From contig JAFGNA010000006.1 in assembly GCA_016927245.1 (NCBI GenBank), forward strand, positions 17,230 to 81,229: 64,000 nucleotides of DNA. The letters run 5' to 3'. The position numbers and the translations under genes are program-made. The notes below the pieces were generated by a model. It was given only the letters and a program-made list of their open reading frames with translations. It was not told the origin of the DNA and searched no databases. This document shows positions 1-38,699 of this stretch, one piece after another (the first letter of the stretch is position 1; each line of letters starts with the position of its first letter). The stretch is from Candidatus Woesearchaeota archaeon (GTDB taxonomy: Archaea; Nanobdellota; Nanobdellia; Woesearchaeales; WJKR01).

Positions 1-145
1 ACCTCTTCAGGCAAGCGCTAACGAGCAAGCACCACGACGTCACGGACGAAGCATGGGAAGCGTTCCTCAAAGGCTACCGCCCCCTGAAGCGCGAACGCAT
101 CCTCCAACGGCTCCGAATCGTGGAACAACGGGGGCGGAACAAGGC

Positions 146-1882
146 ATGAATAAGCGCACCCTCCACCTCGCAGTCCTCATACTGCTGCTAGGAGCGACAA
201 TCTCATTCCTCCCCTGGCTGCTCCCCGCACGGCAAGGGCACCTCACCCTCCTCACCGTCACCACCGTCAACGGCACCGAAATAGGCGGCACGGCGGACGT
301 CACCCTCAAACTCACGCCCGGCAAAGGAGACGTGTACATCACCACTTACCCCTTCACCAAGCTAGACACCCAGATCAGCACCCGATTCGCAAAGGAAGTG
401 GCCTGCGCCTACACAGAGATGCCCTGCGACAACCACGACTTCTTCTACACCATCCACGCGGACAGCAGCATCATCGGCGGCCCGAGCGCAGGAGCAGCCC
501 TCACCGCCCTCACCATCGCGCTGCTCGAACAGGAACCCATCGACCAAGGAGTCGCCATCACAGGCACGATCAACAGCGGCGGCATCGTCGGCCCAGTCGG
601 CGGCATCGACGCCAAGGCTGCCGCAGCGGCCGCGAAAGGCCTGCACACGGTCATTGTGCCGCGCTGGCAGCAGGAAAGGAACAACACCCATAACGAGTCG
701 TTGCTCGAGCTCGCCCTCATCCCAGGACCAAGCATAGCGATCGTCGAGGTCGCAACGATAGAAGAGGCGCTCACCGTGCTCACCGGCGAGCCGCACGGAC
801 AGGGACCAGCAGGGTTCACCGTGCCCAAAGCCTACACAGAGCTCATGGAAGCCATAGCGGAACGCATGTGTGATCACAGCGACCAGCTCCGCTCCACACT
901 AGACCTCGATGCCCTCGCAGATGACCCCTTGCTCAACCAGAGCGAAAGCTACCTCGCCGACGCCGAGCTGGCCGACGAGCGCGGCAACCACTACAGCAAA
1001 GCGAGCTACTGCTTCTCCGCTAACCTACGCCTGCGCGAGCTCCAGCTCATGAACGCCACCGACGAGGCCCTCGTCGCCGACGCAGAAGCGTTGCGCGAGA
1101 CCATCAACGAACGGCTCGCAGACCTCCAGGAGCGGCCGCTCATCACCTTCTCGGACCTGCAGACAAAGGCCATCGTCGACGAACGGCTTCGCGAGGCGGC
1201 GGGCTACCTCGAACAAGAGCCCTCGCCGAACTCCTTGGCATACGCCATGGAGCGGTACCGCAGCGCGATTATCTGGAGCAACTTCTTCCAACTCCCCGGA
1301 GAGCCGATTGCTCTCGAGGAATCTCACCTCCGCTCAGCGTGCGAGGCGAAGCTCGCAGAGGTCGAGGAGCGCAAGAGCTACATCGACGCCCTCTTCGGCC
1401 CCTTGCTCGCCATGGACGAAGCGAGCGTGAAGGACGCCTACGCGATGTATCGAGACGGCGACTACGCGCTGTGCCTGTCAGAGGCGTCCATGGCCAAGGC
1501 GCAGATAGACACAGTAATATCCAGCATCTCCATGGACGAGGACGACCTCGACATGTTAGTAGGTGAGAAGCTCCGCGCCGCGGAGCGCGTATTGTCACGC
1601 GAGTCGTCGCAAGGACGATTCCCGGTCATGGGCTACAGCTATTATGAGTATGCGAGCTCGCTGCGCGAGGAAGACCCGTACACAGCGACGCTGTTCTCCT
1701 CCTACGCCTTAGAACTGGCGGATCTGAGCATGTACTTCCCGTCGCGCCCGTCATGGTCCTCCCGGCTGCGCATGGCGTTGTCCAGCCCATTCATGATAGG
1801 GTTCATCGCGGGCATGCTCGTAGCGTTCATCCTAGTCGTGCTAGTCTTCCCTCAGAAGAAGCGTGCCCGCCGCAGGCCTTGA
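146..1882 (+). CDS. Membrane-anchored Lon-like S16 peptidase-domain protein without an AAA+ module. It has an N-terminal TM helix, a Lon proteolytic domain, a long helical region and a C-terminal TM helix.
   Basis: The translation shows the Lon S16 motif IIGGPSAGAALTALTIALL with a downstream conserved Lys (AAKGLHTVIVPR). Hydrophobic segments lie at both ends and there are no Walker A/B motifs. The start is more likely the ATG at 146 (MNKRTLHLAVLILLL) than at 53. Confidence 0.6.
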   Translation: MNKRTLHLAVLILLLGATISFLPWLLPARQGHLTLLTVTTVNGTEIGGTADVTLKLTPGKGDVYITTYPFTKLDTQISTRFAKEVACAYTEMPCDNHDFFYTIHADSSIIGGPSAGAALTALTIALLEQEPIDQGVAITGTINSGGIVGPVGGIDAKAAAAAAKGLHTVIVPRWQQERNNTHNESLLELALIPGPSIAIVEVATIEEALTVLTGEPHGQGPAGFTVPKAYTELMEAIAERMCDHSDQLRSTLDLDALADDPLLNQSESYLADAELADERGNHYSKASYCFSANLRLRELQLMNATDEALVADAEALRETINERLADLQERPLITFSDLQTKAIVDERLREAAGYLEQEPSPNSLAYAMERYRSAIIWSNFFQLPGEPIALEESHLRSACEAKLAEVEERKSYIDALFGPLLAMDEASVKDAYAMYRDGDYALCLSEASMAKAQIDTVISSISMDEDDLDMLVGEKLRAAERVLSRESSQGRFPVMGYSYYEYASSLREEDPYTATLFSSYALELADLSMYFPSRPSWSSRLRMALSSPFMIGFIAGMLVAFILVVLVFPQKKRARRRP

Positions 1883-2738: not shown

Positions 2739-3299
2739 ATGGTTACTCTTTTGTTGCGCAATCTTTTTATGCGTTCCTGCCTTCCTGCTTCTATGCTTCT
2801 CTGCGCTGTCTGCGGCAGGCCTGCGACTATCTCTCTGAGCTACACGAGCCGTTCCTACTGCGACGAGCACTTCTGGCGCCTGATTGAGCGGCGCGTCCGC
2901 AAGGACCTCCGAATCCATGCGGCTATTGATATCATGAAGGAGTATCGTTTCAGGGATGACGGCTCGCCCTTGGCTGACCTGGCCAGGACGTTCTTGGAGC
3001 GCATCTTCGGCGGCCGACTCGCCCTGGTCGTTGATCCGGAAGCGGCTCCCGGCCCGGACGTGATACTCCCTGTCTGCCTCGAGGAGGAGGCTTCTGCCAG
3101 GTTCCTGCGATTCCTTGACCCCTCGTTGCCCGAGCTGTCAGGGATAAGGCCGCTGCGCACCGTCAGCATGGAGGACGTGCGGCACTTGCTTCCACGTGTC
3201 GCTTTGCGTGTCTCCGCGCATCCCTTGCTGGAAGGCCTTCGCGCCGTTGAGCCTACAGTCTTCTTCGGCGTGATGAGCGTGCTAGAGAAAGAAACATAA
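2739..3299 (+). CDS. Hypothetical protein with an N-terminal Cys-X2-Cys...Cys-X2-His zinc-finger-like motif.
   Basis: The translation contains CAVCGRP...SYCDEHF near the N-terminus. No recognisable enzymatic motif. Confidence 0.4.
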   Translation: MVTLLLRNLFMRSCLPASMLLCAVCGRPATISLSYTSRSYCDEHFWRLIERRVRKDLRIHAAIDIMKEYRFRDDGSPLADLARTFLERIFGGRLALVVDPEAAPGPDVILPVCLEEEASARFLRFLDPSLPELSGIRPLRTVSMEDVRHLLPRVALRVSAHPLLEGLRAVEPTVFFGVMSVLEKET

Positions 3300-3329
3300 A
3301 AAAATAGGAAAAAAATGTGGAGGAAAAAT

Positions 3330-3671
3330 TTACTTCTTCTTCCTCTTGGTGAGCTTCCTTTTTGCGGGCTTCTTCTTTGCCGCTTTCTTCGCTGCTTTTT
3401 TCTTTGCGGGCTTCTTCTTTGCCGCTTTCTTCGCTGCTTTTTTCTTTGCCGGCTTCTTCACAGCCTTCTTGACTGTTTTCTTTGCTGCTTTTTTCTTTGC
3501 GGGCTTCTTCTTTGCCGCTTTCTTCGCTGCTTTTTTCTTTGCCGGCTTCTTCTTGGCGACCTTCTTCACAGCCTTCTTGACCGTTTTTTTCGCCTTCTTC
3601 GCGACCTTCTTCACAGCCTTCTTCGCTTTCTTCTTCACGGGCTTCTTCTTTGCCGCTTTCTTCGCTGCCAT
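3330..3671 (-). CDS. Lysine/alanine-rich tandem-repeat basic protein (histone H1/HC1-like low-complexity DNA- or RNA-binding protein).
   Basis: The 113-aa translation is almost entirely AKKAAKKKPAKKK repeats. The DNA shows about 70-nt tandem repeats across 3360-3660. The plus-strand F-rich ORF 3346-3720 is its mirror-image artefact. Confidence 0.5.
   Translation of the reverse strand: MAAKKAAKKKPVKKKAKKAVKKVAKKAKKTVKKAVKKVAKKKPAKKKAAKKAAKKKPAKKKAAKKTVKKAVKKPAKKKAAKKAAKKKPAKKKAAKKAAKKKPAKRKLTKRKKK
3360..3660. repeat. In-frame tandem nucleotide repeats encoding KKAAKKKPAKK units.
   Basis: A recurring cttctttgccgctttcttcgctgcttttttctttgc(g/c)ggcttctt unit is visible at least four times. Confidence 0.6.
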
Positions 3672-3924
3672 GGAAACACCTCACATGCTTGCTATCATAA
3701 GCAGTTTTTTCTCTTCCTAGGATTAATTATTTATAAAGTTTATGTTTTTAAGCGATATTCATCCGTCATTTCCACGACAAATCCTTTGTCGCAAAGGATG
3801 CGGCGCGATCGCCACCCCTGAACTCGCCTTTCCAAAAAGCAAGTTGACCGCTCAATTTTTTTCACCGGAAATTCTCCTATCATGGCAAAGCAACGCATAT
3901 CAACGATCGCGAGACCGACATGCC

Positions 3925-14397: not shown

Positions 14398-14515
14398 CGA
14401 GCCTGGAGGGATTCGAACCCTCGACCTAGTGCTGGCTCCTCCGCTGTTGCGGGAGTAGGAGGCACTCGCGCTTTCTGGAGATTGAAAAAGCCTATCCAGG
14501 CTGCGCTACAGGCTC
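14398..14515 (-). tRNA. tRNA, probably tRNA-Arg(CCU), carrying two introns. One of about 21 nt lies in the D-arm region and one of 22 nt at the canonical 37/38 site.
   Basis: The minus-strand read shows acceptor GAGCCTG/CAGGCTC, T-arm GAGGG-TTCGAAT-CCCTC, anticodon stem AGTGC/GCACT and loop CUCCUA|intron|A. The gene is 118 nt versus about 75 nt for a mature tRNA. The extra sequence between GCGC (10-13) and its partner GCGC implies a second insertion. Confidence 0.55.
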
Positions 14516-28412: not shown

Positions 28413-28568
28413 TGGCGCCGCGGGTGGGATTTGAACCCACGATCCCAAAGGGACAGGATGTTTGGCATTGCTGGTATTCTGATACACCAATAGGTATATA
28501 GCAATCTTACACGCCAGGAAGCTCATTGCTTGCCTGTCTCTGCGCAATACCAGGCTATGCGACCGCGG
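28413..28568 (-). tRNA. Intron-containing tRNA with a long (about 80 nt) intervening sequence. It has class-II-like features and resembles archaeal tRNA-Ser in the acceptor and D-arm. The anticodon is unresolved.
   Basis: The minus-strand read shows 5' GCCGCGG-UC-GCAUAGCCUGGUAUUGCGC (canonical D-loop with GG). The 3' part is GUGGG-UUCAAAU-CCCAC-CCGCGGC-G with a perfect 7-bp acceptor. A possible CCC-UUU-GGG variable-arm hairpin is present. The span is 156 nt. A paralogous gene lies at 38525-38663. Confidence 0.5.
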
Positions 28569-28607
28569 CATGGCTTGCACGCAGGTGTGAGAATCACCAG
28601 TTCCTTT

Positions 28608-32193: not shown

Positions 32194-32259
32194 GGCCACA
32201 ACCAAAGCTTTAAAAAAGAGCTGGGTTTTCTTGCTATTCTCCTGGAAAGTACCCAGCAT

Positions 32260-32389
32260 AGCGGAGTGGAGCAGTCAGGAGTGCTCGCAGAAATCATTTC
32301 ATTGCGAAATGGTTGCGGAAGGCTCATAAAAGGGTTATCTAACCCTTAGAGGCACCCTGAGGTCAAAGGTTCAAATCCTTTCTCCGCTA
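32260..32389 (+). tRNA. Initiator tRNA-Met (CAU) with two introns. Intron 1 (about 30 nt, 32291-32320) lies inside the anticodon stem and intron 2 (about 25 nt, 32330-32354) lies at or next to 37/38.
   Basis: A1:U72 acceptor AGCGGAG/CTCCGCT with discriminator A is present, as is D-arm GAGC/GCTC. After removing the inserts, the anticodon stem is CAGGG/CCCTG (three G-C pairs, initiator hallmark) and the loop is CUCAUAA. T-arm is AAAGG-TTCAAAT-CCTTT. Intron 1 contains a CATTTC/GAAATG hairpin. Confidence 0.65.
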
Positions 32390-32454
32390 TTTTTTCTTTC
32401 CACTGGTCATCTGCACGCACAGCAACTATATGCTTTCTTGTTCCTCGAGTTGTT

Positions 32455-33072
32455 ATGCAGGTTATTGATGAGAAGCTCGCTGAACTCGTAGGCGTTCTCC
32501 TTGGCGATGGTTCAATCAACACTTCAGTGTCGGGCAATCTATTGTGGACTCGTGTTCAAGTCACTTTTCATTCTGAGCAGAAGGAATACATTGAGTATGT
32601 TCGTTCATTGATGGAAGAGGTGCTGGGTGTGAATCCGATATACAAGAAACGACGCGCTCAGAATTGTGCAGACCTACAGATTTTTCGTTTTGCTGTGTTG
32701 AGGGATCTGCTTTTGATAGGGATGCAATTGTCTCCTAAATGGGATAGGGCGCGAATACCTCTCATGTTCATGAACAAATACTTCGGTAGATTTGTGCTCC
32801 GCGGATACTTCGATACTGACGGAAGTGTCGTGATTGCGAACAATAATGGTACTCGTTATCCTCGACTAGAGATGAAGATAAGCCCTTCTCCTATGCAAGA
32901 ACAGCTATTGATGCTCTTAGACTTGCATGGGTTCCATTATGGAGTCTATGATATTGGGAAAGGGAAAGTGCGTGTGCAGATGAACGGATTCTCTGCCTTG
33001 AAGAGATGGAATGAGGAGATAGGTTTCTCGAACAGCTATTATCAGGAGAGATGTGACTCTTTCTATACATAA
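32455..33072 (+). CDS. Free-standing LAGLIDADG homing endonuclease (double-motif).
   Basis: Two LAGLIDADG motifs are present: LAELVGVLLGDGSI and LRGYFDTDGSV. The gene is about 45% GC versus about 60% for the flanks and starts 65 nt after the two-intron initiator tRNA. Confidence 0.8.
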   Translation: MQVIDEKLAELVGVLLGDGSINTSVSGNLLWTRVQVTFHSEQKEYIEYVRSLMEEVLGVNPIYKKRRAQNCADLQIFRFAVLRDLLLIGMQLSPKWDRARIPLMFMNKYFGRFVLRGYFDTDGSVVIANNNGTRYPRLEMKISPSPMQEQLLMLLDLHGFHYGVYDIGKGKVRVQMNGFSALKRWNEEIGFSNSYYQERCDSFYT

Positions 33073-35520: not shown

Positions 35521-36570
35521 GTGCCCGTGGGCTATTTGAACATCTTCTTATTCTTTATTTCAGTGAATGACGAAATAGCTGAATGCGTCGGTTTATGGCT
35601 TGCCGAAGGTGATTCCACGTCTCGCTATGAGCTCACTTTCACGAATAATTCCCCTGCTTTGATTCGTCATTTCTATTCTGGCGTTTCAGGACTGTTCCCT
35701 GGAGAGCGATATCACTTGTACATTTATGGTCTTGGCAATCCTGTCAAACCCCCTATTCCTGGGATCGCCGTTAGGACCTATACGGACAAACGTGCTCGGA
35801 AGCCATATTTTATCATTCGCTTGGCATCAAAGGCGACCATGACTGCTTGGTATGATATTGTCAGTGACTATCTTTCTTCTGATGATATCTCTGTTGTCGC
35901 GTCTATCATCAGAGGGTTCTTTGCCGGTGAAGGTTCGGTAAAGGTTTCTTCCCACAATTCCAGAATATTGCGGATAGCGCAGAAAGAAAGGACCGATTAC
36001 CTTGATAACACGTTTTCTCTGCTCGGTTTGCACTTCCGTTTCTTTGCTGGCAATAGGACCTACGAGTTCTCAGGAAGAGATAACTGGCTAGTATTCGCTG
36101 AACATCGCCTGGCTGACCTTCACCCTTTGAAGAAGGCGTCGTTCTGGAGTGCTTATCATGATTTTAAGCAATGTCATTACCCTAAACTGTATCTTAAGCA
36201 AAGCATCTTTCCACTGCTGTCCGAGCCGAAGAGTGCTCGGCAGCTGGCAAAAGCCTTTTCTCGTTCTTCTGCAAGAATATATGATGTTCTCAGTGAGTTG
36301 AAAGAAGAAGGGTCAGTGAGCAATTATCGAGTCGGAAGCGTGGACTACTGGGTCGCAAGTGATTGTTTGGTCATTTCTGGGAAGAAGAAAGCGTATCTTG
36401 ACTGCTTATCCATACCCCGTGTGGCTTCTTATTGTGCTCGCTTGTTCGATGTCACCCATAAATCTGCTACGAGAAGACTCAGAGAGCTGGAAAAACTGGG
36501 CTTGGCCCAACGTCTGCCTAATAAGCAATGGAAAGCTATAAATACCGAGAAAAAGTTATGTGTCATATGA
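35521..36570 (+). CDS. LAGLIDADG-family endonuclease-like protein fused to two C-terminal winged-helix domains. AT-rich, likely non-ATG start.
   Basis: LAGLIDADG-like motifs VGLWLAEGDST and IIRGFFAGEGSV are present, with wHTH-like segments (SARQLAKAFSRSSARIYDVLSELKEEG; KSATRRLRELEKLGLAQRL). GC content is low relative to the neighbours. The 5' 100 nt of the listed ORF overlap the LD-carboxypeptidase gene, so a GTG/TTG start near 35521 is more plausible. Confidence 0.55.
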   Translation: MPVGYLNIFLFFISVNDEIAECVGLWLAEGDSTSRYELTFTNNSPALIRHFYSGVSGLFPGERYHLYIYGLGNPVKPPIPGIAVRTYTDKRARKPYFIIRLASKATMTAWYDIVSDYLSSDDISVVASIIRGFFAGEGSVKVSSHNSRILRIAQKERTDYLDNTFSLLGLHFRFFAGNRTYEFSGRDNWLVFAEHRLADLHPLKKASFWSAYHDFKQCHYPKLYLKQSIFPLLSEPKSARQLAKAFSRSSARIYDVLSELKEEGSVSNYRVGSVDYWVASDCLVISGKKKAYLDCLSIPRVASYCARLFDVTHKSATRRLRELEKLGLAQRLPNKQWKAINTEKKLCVI

Positions 36571-36572
36571 GC

Positions 36573-37477
36573 ATGTTCATCGCCGGCATCGACGAGGCAG
36601 GCAGAGAATAACACTCGCGTGGTGTCATTCGCCTATAGGCCCCGTTATCGGCCCCATGGTCATGGCCATCGCGGCTATCGAGGAGAAGGATCTCTTTGAA
36701 TTAGAGACGTTCGGCGTCACGGATTCCAAGGCGTTCTCTCCCGTCCAGCGTCGCGAGCTGGCCGAGATGGTGCGTCGCGTGTGCGAGGTCGAAGTGGAAA
36801 TAGCCACGCCCGAGCAAATTGATGAGGCCTTGACGCATCCTTCGCGCAATCTGAACATATTGGAGGCCGAGATGGCCGGCCGCCTCATCGACCGCCTCGT
36901 GGAGCGCCTCGGCGCCCTCAAGATCAAGAAGGTCATCCTTGATTGCCCATCATCGAACGCCAAGGCGTACGTCAAGGACATGCAGCACCGCGTCAAGCGT
37001 GACGTCCTTTTGGAGGCGGAGCACAAGGCGGACCAGAAGTATCGCATCGTCGGCGCCGCGTCCATCCTGGCAAAGGTCATCCGGGACGAGGAGATAGAGG
37101 CCTTGAAGAGGGAGCACGGCGTGGATTTCGGCAGCGGCTATCCCTCCGACGCGAAGACCGCTCGTTTCGTGAGGGAACACCATGCCGATTACGATTTCTT
37201 CCGGAAGACGTGGGAGCCGTACAGAAGGGCGGCTTCTGGCAAGGAGCAGCAATCACTGGGCAGGTTCGGCGTAGATATCTCTTTGCCGCCCGCCGTCAAG
37301 AAGAAGCAGGACAAGTTGTTGGAATTATTGGAGGAAGGATTCGTCCGCGCCGAGGCCAAGGGTGTTGCTGAGGTGTTGCGCTTGCGGCGGGAAGGCGTCA
37401 CCATCACGCTGTACGCGAACGGCAAGGTCTTGGTGCAGGGCAAGGAGAAGGAGGAGTGGGAGCGACGGCTCTCATGA
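36573..37477 (+). CDS. rnhB: Ribonuclease HII, interrupted after the GIDEAGR motif by a 32-nt element (about 36606-36637) that shifts frame. It would be intact if that element were removed at the RNA level.
   Basis: The ATG at 36573 encodes MFIAGIDEAGRE followed by a stop. The downstream body (GPVIGPMVMAIAA...DSKAFSP...ADQKYRIVGAASILAKVIRD...GSGYPSD) is canonical RNase HII in another frame. Deleting the 32 nt restores GIDEAGRGPVIGP exactly. Confidence 0.75.
36606..36637 (+). other. 32-nt intervening element within rnhB. Candidate archaeal mRNA intron (relaxed bulge-helix-bulge) or inactivating insertion.
   Basis: Element gaataacactcgcgtggtgtcattcgcctata. Its removal restores the frame and the conserved GIDEAGRGPVIGP motif. 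It contains an internal hairpin GAATAACAC/GTGTCATTC. Confidence 0.5.
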
Positions 37478-38434: not shown

Positions 38435-38524
38435 CCAAGAGTGTTCTCCCTCGTAGTATTTATGTGTTATGAGAATGCGCCACCGCCCGCTTCTTCACTG
38501 TTCTTCAGGGCGGACGGTGGACTA

Positions 38525-38663
38525 CGCCACCGCCCGGATTCGAACCGGGAATCCCGTGAGGGACCGGCTAACCAGGTATTCTTCCATGGTGAAGAATATC
38601 ACTCAAGGCTTACGCTCACCTTTAAGGGGTGATCGGCGCAATACCAGGTTATGCGACGGTGGC
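38525..38663 (-). tRNA. Intron-containing tRNA (about 65-nt insert) paralogous to 28413-28568. Class-II-like, anticodon unresolved.
   Basis: 5' GCCACCG-UC-GCAUAACCUGGUAUUGCGC matches the other gene at 24 of 26 positions. The 3' part is CCCGG-UUCGAAU-CCGGG-CGGUGGC-G with a perfect acceptor pairing. A CCC-UCAC-GGG variable-arm-like hairpin is present. Confidence 0.5.
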
Positions 38664-38699
38664 AAAGCTTCCATTATAAACGAACACTGCTGCTTATTT

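Follow-up and report, generated by a model that had tools for sequence, protein, structure and literature searches.

A candidate intron of the tRNA-splicing type in the RNase HII gene of DPANN and Asgard archaea, with a putative homing endonuclease gene upstream

Introduction

For more than 20 years cbf5 of Crenarchaeota has been cited as the sole archaeal protein-coding gene with an intron of the bulge-helix-bulge (BHB) type, and it has been described as the only case in an archaeal coding sequence, with one extra case in a 5′-untranslated region (5′-UTR) of Haloferax (PMC7714728). Here we report on rnhB, the gene for ribonuclease HII (RNase HII), in a stretch of 64,000 nucleotides (nt) of contig JAFGNA010000006.1 (positions 17,230 to 81,229, forward strand) from a metagenome-assembled genome (MAG) of “Candidatus Woesearchaeota archaeon”; the whole stretch is called the window in the following and positions are counted from its first letter. 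The gene very probably carries a 32-nt archaeal intron of the tRNA-splicing type (hBHBh′, with outer helix h, central helix H between two bulges, and inner helix h′) in the Arg codon of its active-site motif GIDEAGR/GPVIGP. A candidate protein-gene intron had been proposed here in a first-pass annotation made from the sequence, and it is supported by the fold of the region, by the restoration of the frame, by recurrence in 34 loci and by covariation. As judged by comparative evidence the intron reading is strongly supported, and rnhB would be the second archaeal protein gene, after cbf5, with a supported intron of this type. The suggestion that an rnhB intron would be new also stands as far as open-access papers are concerned: literature searches with RNase HII, DPANN, Woesearchaeota, Nanoarchaeota and Asgard in combination with BHB or intron found no report of one, which is not proof of absence.

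Like the cbf5 pre-mRNA intron (Watanabe, 2002; Yokobori, 2009, PMC2738675), the rnhB element is predicted to be cut between the second and third bulge nucleotides, and the two share a patchy distribution with lineage-specific loss as well as routine mis-annotation. They differ in their host genes and in the lineages concerned, Desulfurococcales and Sulfolobales for cbf5 as opposed to DPANN and Asgard archaea for rnhB, and while the cbf5 motifs are mostly unconventional, the rnhB motif is close to the canonical hBHBh′ form. Splicing of cbf5 has been shown by cDNA, whereas that of rnhB is predicted from the fold and from gene comparison; unlike rnhB, cbf5 has no associated endonuclease gene. With the archaeal tRNA and rRNA BHB introns that are cut by the tRNA-splicing endonuclease EndA, the element shares the structural motif and the enzymes inferred to act on it, and the genome has interrupted tRNA genes of its own, but the predicted rnhB substrate is an mRNA, in which the exon-exon pairing uses codons that also encode DEA...GPV. 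The BHB element in the 5′-UTR of HVO_1309 in Haloferax volcanii (PMC7714728) is likewise an mRNA substrate for the splicing endonuclease, as predicted for rnhB, but lies in an untranslated leader, whereas the rnhB element interrupts coding sequence.

Two further systems are relevant for a LAGLIDADG-family gene that directly precedes rnhB in the window. I-DmoI and related LAGLIDADG endonucleases from archaeal rRNA BHB introns have a similar two-motif monomeric fold and a similar association with BHB introns, but genes of the I-DmoI type reside inside the intron, whereas the rnhB-linked gene lies outside it, upstream of the host gene, and encodes extra C-terminal winged-helix domains. In the F-CphI/psbA pair of cyanophage S-PM2 (Zeng, 2009, as summarised in PMC6083498) a free-standing endonuclease gene adjoins a gene with an intron that is free of open reading frames (ORFs) and sits at a conserved site, as in rnhB; according to that summary the endonuclease makes the intron mobile and the host allele is shielded by the intron, an arrangement called “collaborative homing.” As described there, a self-splicing group I intron is combined with an enzyme of the Endo VII type in a phage, whereas rnhB would combine a BHB mini-intron with a putative enzyme of the LAGLIDADG type in cellular archaea. 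In our assessment, collaborative homing of F-CphI/psbA is the closest precedent for the rnhB gene-intron pair.

Gene structure and predicted splicing motif

The rnhB gene opens at an ATG at 36573, reads MFIAGIDEAGRE and then meets a TAA stop codon; direct reading confirmed what the first-pass annotation had noticed, namely MFIAGIDEAGR followed by a stop with the remainder out of frame. The remaining RNase HII frame begins IGPVIGPMVMAIAA... (IGPVIGPMV...), is a different one and ends at 37477. Joining 36573-36604 to 36637-37477 gives an RNase HII of 290 amino acids (aa), which matches the Pfam family RNase_HII (PF01351) over residues 4-204 (E 1.2e-43) and aligns from residue 1 to archaeal RNase HII structures in the PDB (1uax, E 3.6e-41; 1eke; 1io2). 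A full-length RNase HII domain including the N-terminal DEAGRG motif is obtained only once the intron is removed, and the public annotation of the 93-kb contig gives for this gene only a 271-aa protein (MBN1274862.1) that starts with MAIAAIEE and is devoid of DEAGRG. The predicted parts of the gene are:

36573..36604, + strand: rnhB exon 1, with MFIAGIDEAG and bases 1-2 (AG) of the Arg codon; equivalent exon kept in 34/34 intron loci
36605..36636, + strand: predicted BHB intron, 32 nt, AGAAUAACACUCGCGUGGUGUCAUUCGCCUAU; frame restored by cutting each bulge behind its second nucleotide
36637..37477, + strand: rnhB exon 2, from the third base of the Arg codon through GPVIGP... to the stop, including a DUF3378-like C-terminal extension

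Removal of the 32 nt rebuilds the Arg codon as AG/A, and the product reads GIDEAGRGPVIGP. The intron position is thus the Arg codon of GIDEAGR/GPVIGP, four codons past the catalytic Asp-Glu, and not the active-site Asp codon at which the first-pass annotation had placed the insert. Its proposed excision of 36606-36637 was right in length and product, but is one of three sequence-equivalent choices, of which the BHB rule gives 36605-36636.

Residues ~215-290 of the RNase HII (window 37220-37477) form a C-terminal extension of ~75 residues found in this Woesearchaeota clade, with a sub-threshold match to DUF3378 (25.6 bits versus a cut-off of 27). DUF3378 is usually the N-terminal domain of RNase HIII.

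In the minimum free energy (MFE) fold of 36585-36660 an hBHBh′ motif is formed with both junctions inside bulges and a 4-bp helix between them, so that the BHB-type fold with cleavage sites 4 bp apart which an intron of this kind calls for was indeed found. Its elements are:

36591..36598, + strand: outer helix h, 5′ strand GACG-A-GGC, in exon 1 (MFE fold; RNAalifold consensus)
36599..36602, + strand: central helix H, 5′ strand AGGC, 4 bp (MFE fold; covariation, both end pairs covary; RNAalifold)
36603..36605, + strand: 5′ bulge AGA (MFE fold), predicted cleavage 36604/36605
36606..36630, + strand: inner helix h′ and hairpin, GAAU.ACACU / GGUGU.AUUC, loop CGCGU (MFE fold; homologue pairing)
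36631..36634, + strand: central helix H, 3′ strand GCCU (MFE fold; covariation; RNAalifold)
36635..36638, + strand: 3′ bulge AUA(G) (MFE fold), predicted cleavage 36636/36637
36639..36646, + strand: outer helix h, 3′ strand GCC-C-CGUU, in exon 2 (MFE fold; RNAalifold)

The outer helix of this fold results from pairing of exon 1 with exon 2 (7 bp and one mismatch), while the central helix AGGC/GCCU, flanked by the bulges AGA (3 nt) and AUA(G) (3-4 nt), consists of 5′-exon bases paired to the 3′ end of the intron. The inner hairpin has nine positions with one mismatch and is made up of the inner helix GAAU/AUUC capped by a 5-bp hairpin. The internal 8/9-bp hairpin seen in the first pass, in which GAAUAACAC pairs with GUGUCAUUC with one A.C mismatch, is real and corresponds to the inner helix plus the hairpin stem. 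Under the rule stated for cbf5, cleavage between the second and third bulge nucleotides (PMC2738675), a cut after the second bulge nucleotide on each strand removes 36605-36636, that is 32 nt, and restores the motif.

Recurrence at the same codon

An insert at the same codon was found in 34 independent loci including the window, the other 33 being further DPANN and Asgard sequences, with lengths of 24-41 nt covering all three length phases. It is therefore widespread in these lineages and not a peculiarity of this genome. The 34 loci comprise 29 pattern-defined ones (the window, L001-L003 and 25 distinct metagenome loci) and five (L071-L075) from a sample ascertained by the upstream endonuclease gene. 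Only 4 of the 120 best homologues are without the DEAGRG N-terminus, and all four have an insert at that codon; in the three relatives that were fetched it measures 33 nt (L001), 32 nt (L002) and 31 nt (L003). The pattern used to scan metagenomes left the central-helix ends and the entire intron interior free and yielded 48 stretches, 30 of which are rnhB (G[ILM]DEAGR upstream and GPV[ILFV]G downstream). A scan of genome contigs recovered no intron-bearing species representative, nor the window's own genome. Comparison of related rnhB loci, which the first-pass annotation had proposed for presence or absence of the insert, revealed both states.

Lengths among the 29 pattern-defined loci are 24-33 nt, the insert of 41 nt being that of L071. 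Twelve of the 29 inserts are in phase 0, nine in phase 1 and eight in phase 2, and an in-frame stop codon is found in each of the 12 phase-0 inserts. Exon 1 (G[ILVM]D[ED]AG[RK]) and the downstream frame are intact in the loci with a complete gene, with the exception of two older, frameshift-prone assemblies. Second introns were considered for these two (L025 and L027, with early ORF breaks) and rejected, as the frame changes seen with tblastn are scattered in the manner usual for older assemblies; L028 and L062, which have the same intron as L025 and L027, have intact downstream ORFs. In L075 the central helix reads CCGG/CCGU with one C.U mismatch and the Arg codon is split as A/GG instead of AG/A, which may represent a one-nucleotide intron slide.

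Pairs in these loci were counted in loop-removed constructs against a hand-written hBHBh′ structure. With the caveat that the sequences are phylogenetically related and that exon bases are partly fixed by the search pattern, 96.7% of the cells are paired as compared with 78.3% in shuffles (0/500 reach the observed value) and 30-48% with partners slid, and the covariation score is 0.537 as compared with 0.163 in shuffles and ≤0.09 with the 3′ partners slid. Compensatory changes on both sides occur in all eight variable pairs (8/8) of the central and inner helices. One end of the central helix is found as A-U, U-A, G-C or G.U and the other as U-A, C-G, U.G or G-C; the two ends fall on the third bases of Ala and Gly codons, and synonymous exon changes therefore have their counterparts in the intron. 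All 29 loci (29/29) form the first inner pair, for which four pair types are used, and inner-helix pairs are formed in 25-29 of 27-29 loci. When RNAalifold was applied de novo to 24 natural, untrimmed sequences, four of which had been found independently of the DNA pattern, it returned the same structure, with compensatory changes in 10 of 18 pairs, one of them in the outer helix. The covariation seen in these alignments supports precisely the hBHBh′ helices.

Proposed mechanism

In the pre-mRNA, exon 1 would pair with exon 2 to form the outer helix, four exon 1 bases would pair with the last four paired intron bases to form the central helix, and the remaining intron would fold into a hairpin. 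EndA would then cut two bases into each bulge (36604/36605 and 36636/36637), an RtcB-type ligase would join the exons, and the intron would probably be released as a small circle. Only the spliced mRNA would encode an RNase HII with the catalytic Asp-Glu, while unspliced mRNA would give rise to a 12-residue peptide. EndA, RtcB and the splicing event itself are inferred from the established archaeal tRNA/cbf5 pathway. EndAs of DPANN archaea with an L3 loop have been linked to heavy tRNA gene disruption (PMC5829648).

Evaluation of alternative explanations

Several results weigh against an intron of this type. The fold energy of the motif is not unusual relative to shuffles (z = -0.69); for so short a motif energy does not discriminate. 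A loose BHB descriptor applied to the whole window gave 208 hits versus 142-192 in shuffles, that is, no enrichment, and was of no use in locating more mRNA introns; the motif alone is therefore not beyond chance. Its form is slightly relaxed, with a 3′ bulge of 4 nt in both the MFE and the RNAalifold consensus folds. The scan pattern fixed parts of the exons, so that conservation of the outer helix is partly a matter of ascertainment, and the cleavage rule works in 33 of the 34 loci, L075 (3040-3110) fitting only after a register shift of one base. A Pfam scan of 58 window ORFs found neither endA nor rtcB in the 64-kb window. The evidential weight lies in the motif coinciding exactly with the frame-restoring junction and in the covariation across 34 homologous loci.

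Read literally, the gene is broken, and NCBI calls only the truncated 271-aa product, as would be expected of a pseudogene in which a 32-nt insertion had inactivated rnhB and the downstream frame was decaying. Such decay is most improbable in view of the same site being interrupted in 34 loci of two archaeal kingdoms with exon 1 intact, of downstream ORFs that are full length with conserved catalytic motifs, and of inserts that keep a covarying BHB structure; breaks further downstream occur only in L025 and L027, the two older assemblies mentioned above. It could also be imagined that the annotated N-terminally truncated protein (start at Met18/Met20), the gene callers' choice in every carrier, is the real product and the upstream piece irrelevant. 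This protein begins beyond the D and E of DEAGRG, a motif that lines up with residues 1-12 of solved enzymes; we take these two residues to be catalytic, as Asp7 and Glu8 of the Thermococcus enzyme, and exon 1 shows protein-level conservation with synonymous variation (GAC/GAT, GCA/GCG/GCT, GGC/GGT/GGG) across carriers, which leaves the truncated product with a very small probability as well.

Programmed ribosomal frameshifting or translational bypassing would account for the two differing frames in the window and for a hairpin and a stop codon after the break. Insert lengths fall into all three phases, and the 12 in-frame inserts contain stops; therefore no single frameshift or read-through mechanism works. 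In addition, reading of the sequence revealed no take-off/landing codon pair that would preserve DEAGRGP, and neither a constant shift nor such a pair was found conserved among the homologues, while the covariation fits the geometry of an EndA substrate, with a 3-nt bulge and a 4-bp helix; we consider recoding even less probable than the two preceding explanations. An assembly or sequencing artefact might be suspected in a MAG, and the first-pass annotation had itself raised this concern, but the insert recurs with sequence variation in NCBI, ENA, JGI and Logan assemblies, and its presence in 34 independent assemblies rules out an assembly error, so that this is the least probable explanation of all. 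Group I and group II introns were rejected, since 32 nt are far too short and an Rfam search of the window at gathering and E-value thresholds returned only tRNA matches and no ribozyme intron.

Distribution and annotation of carriers

Carriers of the predicted intron belong to two archaeal kingdoms, Nanobdellati (DPANN) and Promethearchaeati (Asgard). Those of DPANN include the window and L001-L003, which are of Woesearchaeota type, L074, labelled Aenigmarchaeota, and L072, labelled Norongarragalinales (Micrarchaeia). In the largest metagenomic group, which is of Asgard type, the central helix is UGGU/ACCA and the intron is in frame with 30 nt; the named relatives nearest to this group come from contigs as long as 998 kb and are annotated as Lokiarchaeota, Promethearchaeota, Hermodarchaeota and Thorarchaeota. 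For this group, 30 of the 120 best homologues are without the N-terminal motif, and many of the public proteins are mis-annotated because their start lies inside the intron (MPKGPVIGP..., VSGYIPKGPVIGP). Asgard-type metagenomic carriers are L022, L027, L028, L030, L033, L042, L059, L061, L062, L063 and L066, probably also L023 and L055.

Within clades the distribution is patchy, a neighbour-joining tree of 140 proteins requiring no fewer than seven changes of state, and intron-less alleles are found close to the intron-bearing allele of L001 (P0002, 84% identical; P0023, 90% identical). All carriers examined are annotated as N-terminally truncated RNase HII without the catalytic residues, for example MBN1274862.1, MBY8983439.1, MHA2281025.1 and MFX0030558.1. 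With a second host gene, mRNA splicing by the tRNA-splicing machinery would be no crenarchaeal curiosity but would occur in DPANN and Asgard archaea too, and more such introns might be sought by looking for conserved genes that are truncated and have a BHB motif where they break off.

The upstream LAGLIDADG gene

The first-pass annotation had noted a LAGLIDADG–winged helix-turn-helix (wHTH) gene adjoining the start of rnhB, and this gene indeed ends at 36570, 2 nt before the ATG:

35527..36570, + strand: LAGLIDADG-wHTH gene, 347 aa, MBN1274861.1 (hypothetical protein at NCBI), candidate free-standing homing endonuclease

Pfam matches of the protein to LAGLIDADG_3 and TrmB are both weak. It belongs to a family of 405 hits of ~340 aa that show 40-47% identity and carry the labels Woese-, Pace-, Aenigm- and Nanoarchaeota and Norongarragalinales; both LAGLIDADG motifs (AECvGLWLAEGd and LRGFFAGEG) are conserved in it. 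Each motif helix has an acidic residue at its C-terminal end, of which E27 is invariant and E135 is conserved in at least 90%. A sequence search against the PDB gave no match for the protein, and the relationship came from a fold search: the AlphaFold model (pLDDT 94), which includes C-terminal winged-helix domains, retrieved I-DmoI as top Foldseek hit (E 5e-6), and also I-Tsp061I, the bI3 maturase, PI-SceI and WhiA (TMq 0.41). The protein as modelled has two LAGLIDADG helices with conserved acidic residues and an I-DmoI-like fold. WhiA has lost the LAGLIDADG catalytic acidic residues.

Seven family members were sampled on long contigs with diverse labels, regardless of the intron. Each of the seven directly precedes rnhB, the surroundings being otherwise unrelated, and five of the seven adjoining rnhB genes have a BHB intron (L071, 41 nt; L072, 33 nt; L073, 31 nt; L074, 30 nt; L075, 29 nt), for which the binomial probability at the lower background intron rate is 8e-7 (backgrounds 4/120 and 30/120). 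Among loci ascertained by the intron, the gene is present in 7 of ~27, counting C-terminal pieces of it where the contigs of L049 and L056 end, as compared with 0 of 13 intron-less loci, a marginal difference (Fisher P = 0.048); the stronger signal for a link between gene and intron is the sample ascertained by the endonuclease gene and not the Fisher test. The close relatives L004, L067 and L068 have neither gene nor intron. The intron-less site of L004 reads GGTATCGACGAGGCAGGCAGAGGCCCTGTCATCGGTCCC, and in the empty site of L068 an S66 peptidase gene on the opposite strand is directly followed by intron-less rnhB, while the order in the window is the same S66 peptidase gene, the LAGLIDADG gene and the intron-bearing rnhB. 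The intron-less allele P0023 has a different 5′ flank.

These associations suggest a free-standing homing endonuclease that cooperates with the intron, and with no more than moderate confidence we propose that endonuclease gene and intron would have spread together, the intron protecting the host allele. The gene is almost always accompanied by the intron and the intron is often found without the gene, an asymmetry to be expected of a homing cycle in which the intron shields the endonuclease's own target and persists longer than the endonuclease. More specifically, and only tentatively, we consider putative collaborative homing, in which the upstream endonuclease would cut the highly conserved DEAGRGP-coding DNA of intron-less alleles and carry an otherwise immobile mini-intron between archaeal genomes, perhaps between DPANN and Asgard archaea, while the intron would immunise its host allele. 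Three findings tell against such a cooperation, namely the two of seven loci with gene and no intron (L070 and L076), the ~20 intron-bearing loci without the endonuclease gene, and the even conservation within the family (40-47% identity), which also fits a vertically inherited partner protein. A profile search upstream of intron loci without the gene found no decayed LAGLIDADG remnants.

A serious alternative, which may be right although we would not call it probable, is that the upstream protein is no homing endonuclease but a domesticated DNA- or RNA-binding partner or regulator, WhiA-like or maturase-like and co-transcribed with rnhB, its link to the intron reflecting shared ancestry. The uniform length and identity of the family across DPANN phyla resemble those of housekeeping genes, the fold hits include WhiA and the bI3 maturase, and the protein has C-terminal winged-helix domains and is encoded 2 nt from rnhB. 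Both LAGLIDADG catalytic acidic residues are conserved, however, a BHB intron has no need of a maturase, and the gene is missing from the intron-less close relatives L004, L067 and L068 (with P0023 differing in its 5′ flank), while the flanking genes differ at every locus as the gene-rnhB pair persists.

If collaborative homing applied, rnhB would provide its first example with a protein-spliced (BHB) intron and a working model of how introns that depend on an endonuclease colonise protein genes in those archaea most closely related to eukaryotes. Were the partnership with the endonuclease real, it would represent a new variation on known homing, and a conserved partnership with a LAGLIDADG family offers a testable route by which such introns could be gained, which bears on intron spread in archaeal relatives of eukaryotes.

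The insertion-site sequence is divergent in L070 (3541-3582, GATGATGCTGGCAGAGGCCCAATAATA) and L076 (3074-3115, GATGAGGCTGGTAAGGGTCCAGTAATA); this is compatible with target-site immunity but may alternatively just reflect low G+C (0.34 and 0.27). L067, a close relative of the window organism, contains at 1-404 (-) a different LAGLIDADG_3-like gene (254 aa) beside a Dus gene, 2.6 kb upstream of its intron-less rnhB.

tRNA genes and other features of the window

Four of the five tRNA genes of the window are interrupted, with lengths of 118-157 nt, and default ARAGORN and Rfam detect only two of the window tRNAs. The interrupted genes are:

14398-14515, - strand: interrupted tRNA gene
28413-28569, - strand: interrupted tRNA gene
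32259-32390, + strand: interrupted tRNA gene (tRNA-Pro)
38524-38664, - strand: interrupted tRNA gene

The tRNA-Glu gene has two inserts, one of which lies in the D-loop, a non-canonical site, and the genes of 157 nt and 141 nt probably contain either multiple introns or introns that are very long. Of the earlier statement that several tRNAs here have introns at non-canonical sites, the interruption of several genes stands, while a non-canonical site was seen in one, that in the D-loop.

A second, small ORF of the canonical type with two LAGLIDADG motifs (LLGDGS and YFDTDGS; 205 aa, 32455-33072, + strand; Pfam LAGLIDADG_3, E 5e-11) is located 65 nt downstream of the interrupted tRNA-Pro gene, which has a good BHB-like motif at 32286-32320, and the two may be a further instance of a free-standing endonuclease coupled to a gene with an intron. 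Elsewhere in the window, two adjacent ORFs on the + strand (2739-3296 and 3315-3818; 186 and 168 aa) follow each other with a gap of 18 nt; for the first there is only a weak match to the TtuA LIM domain.

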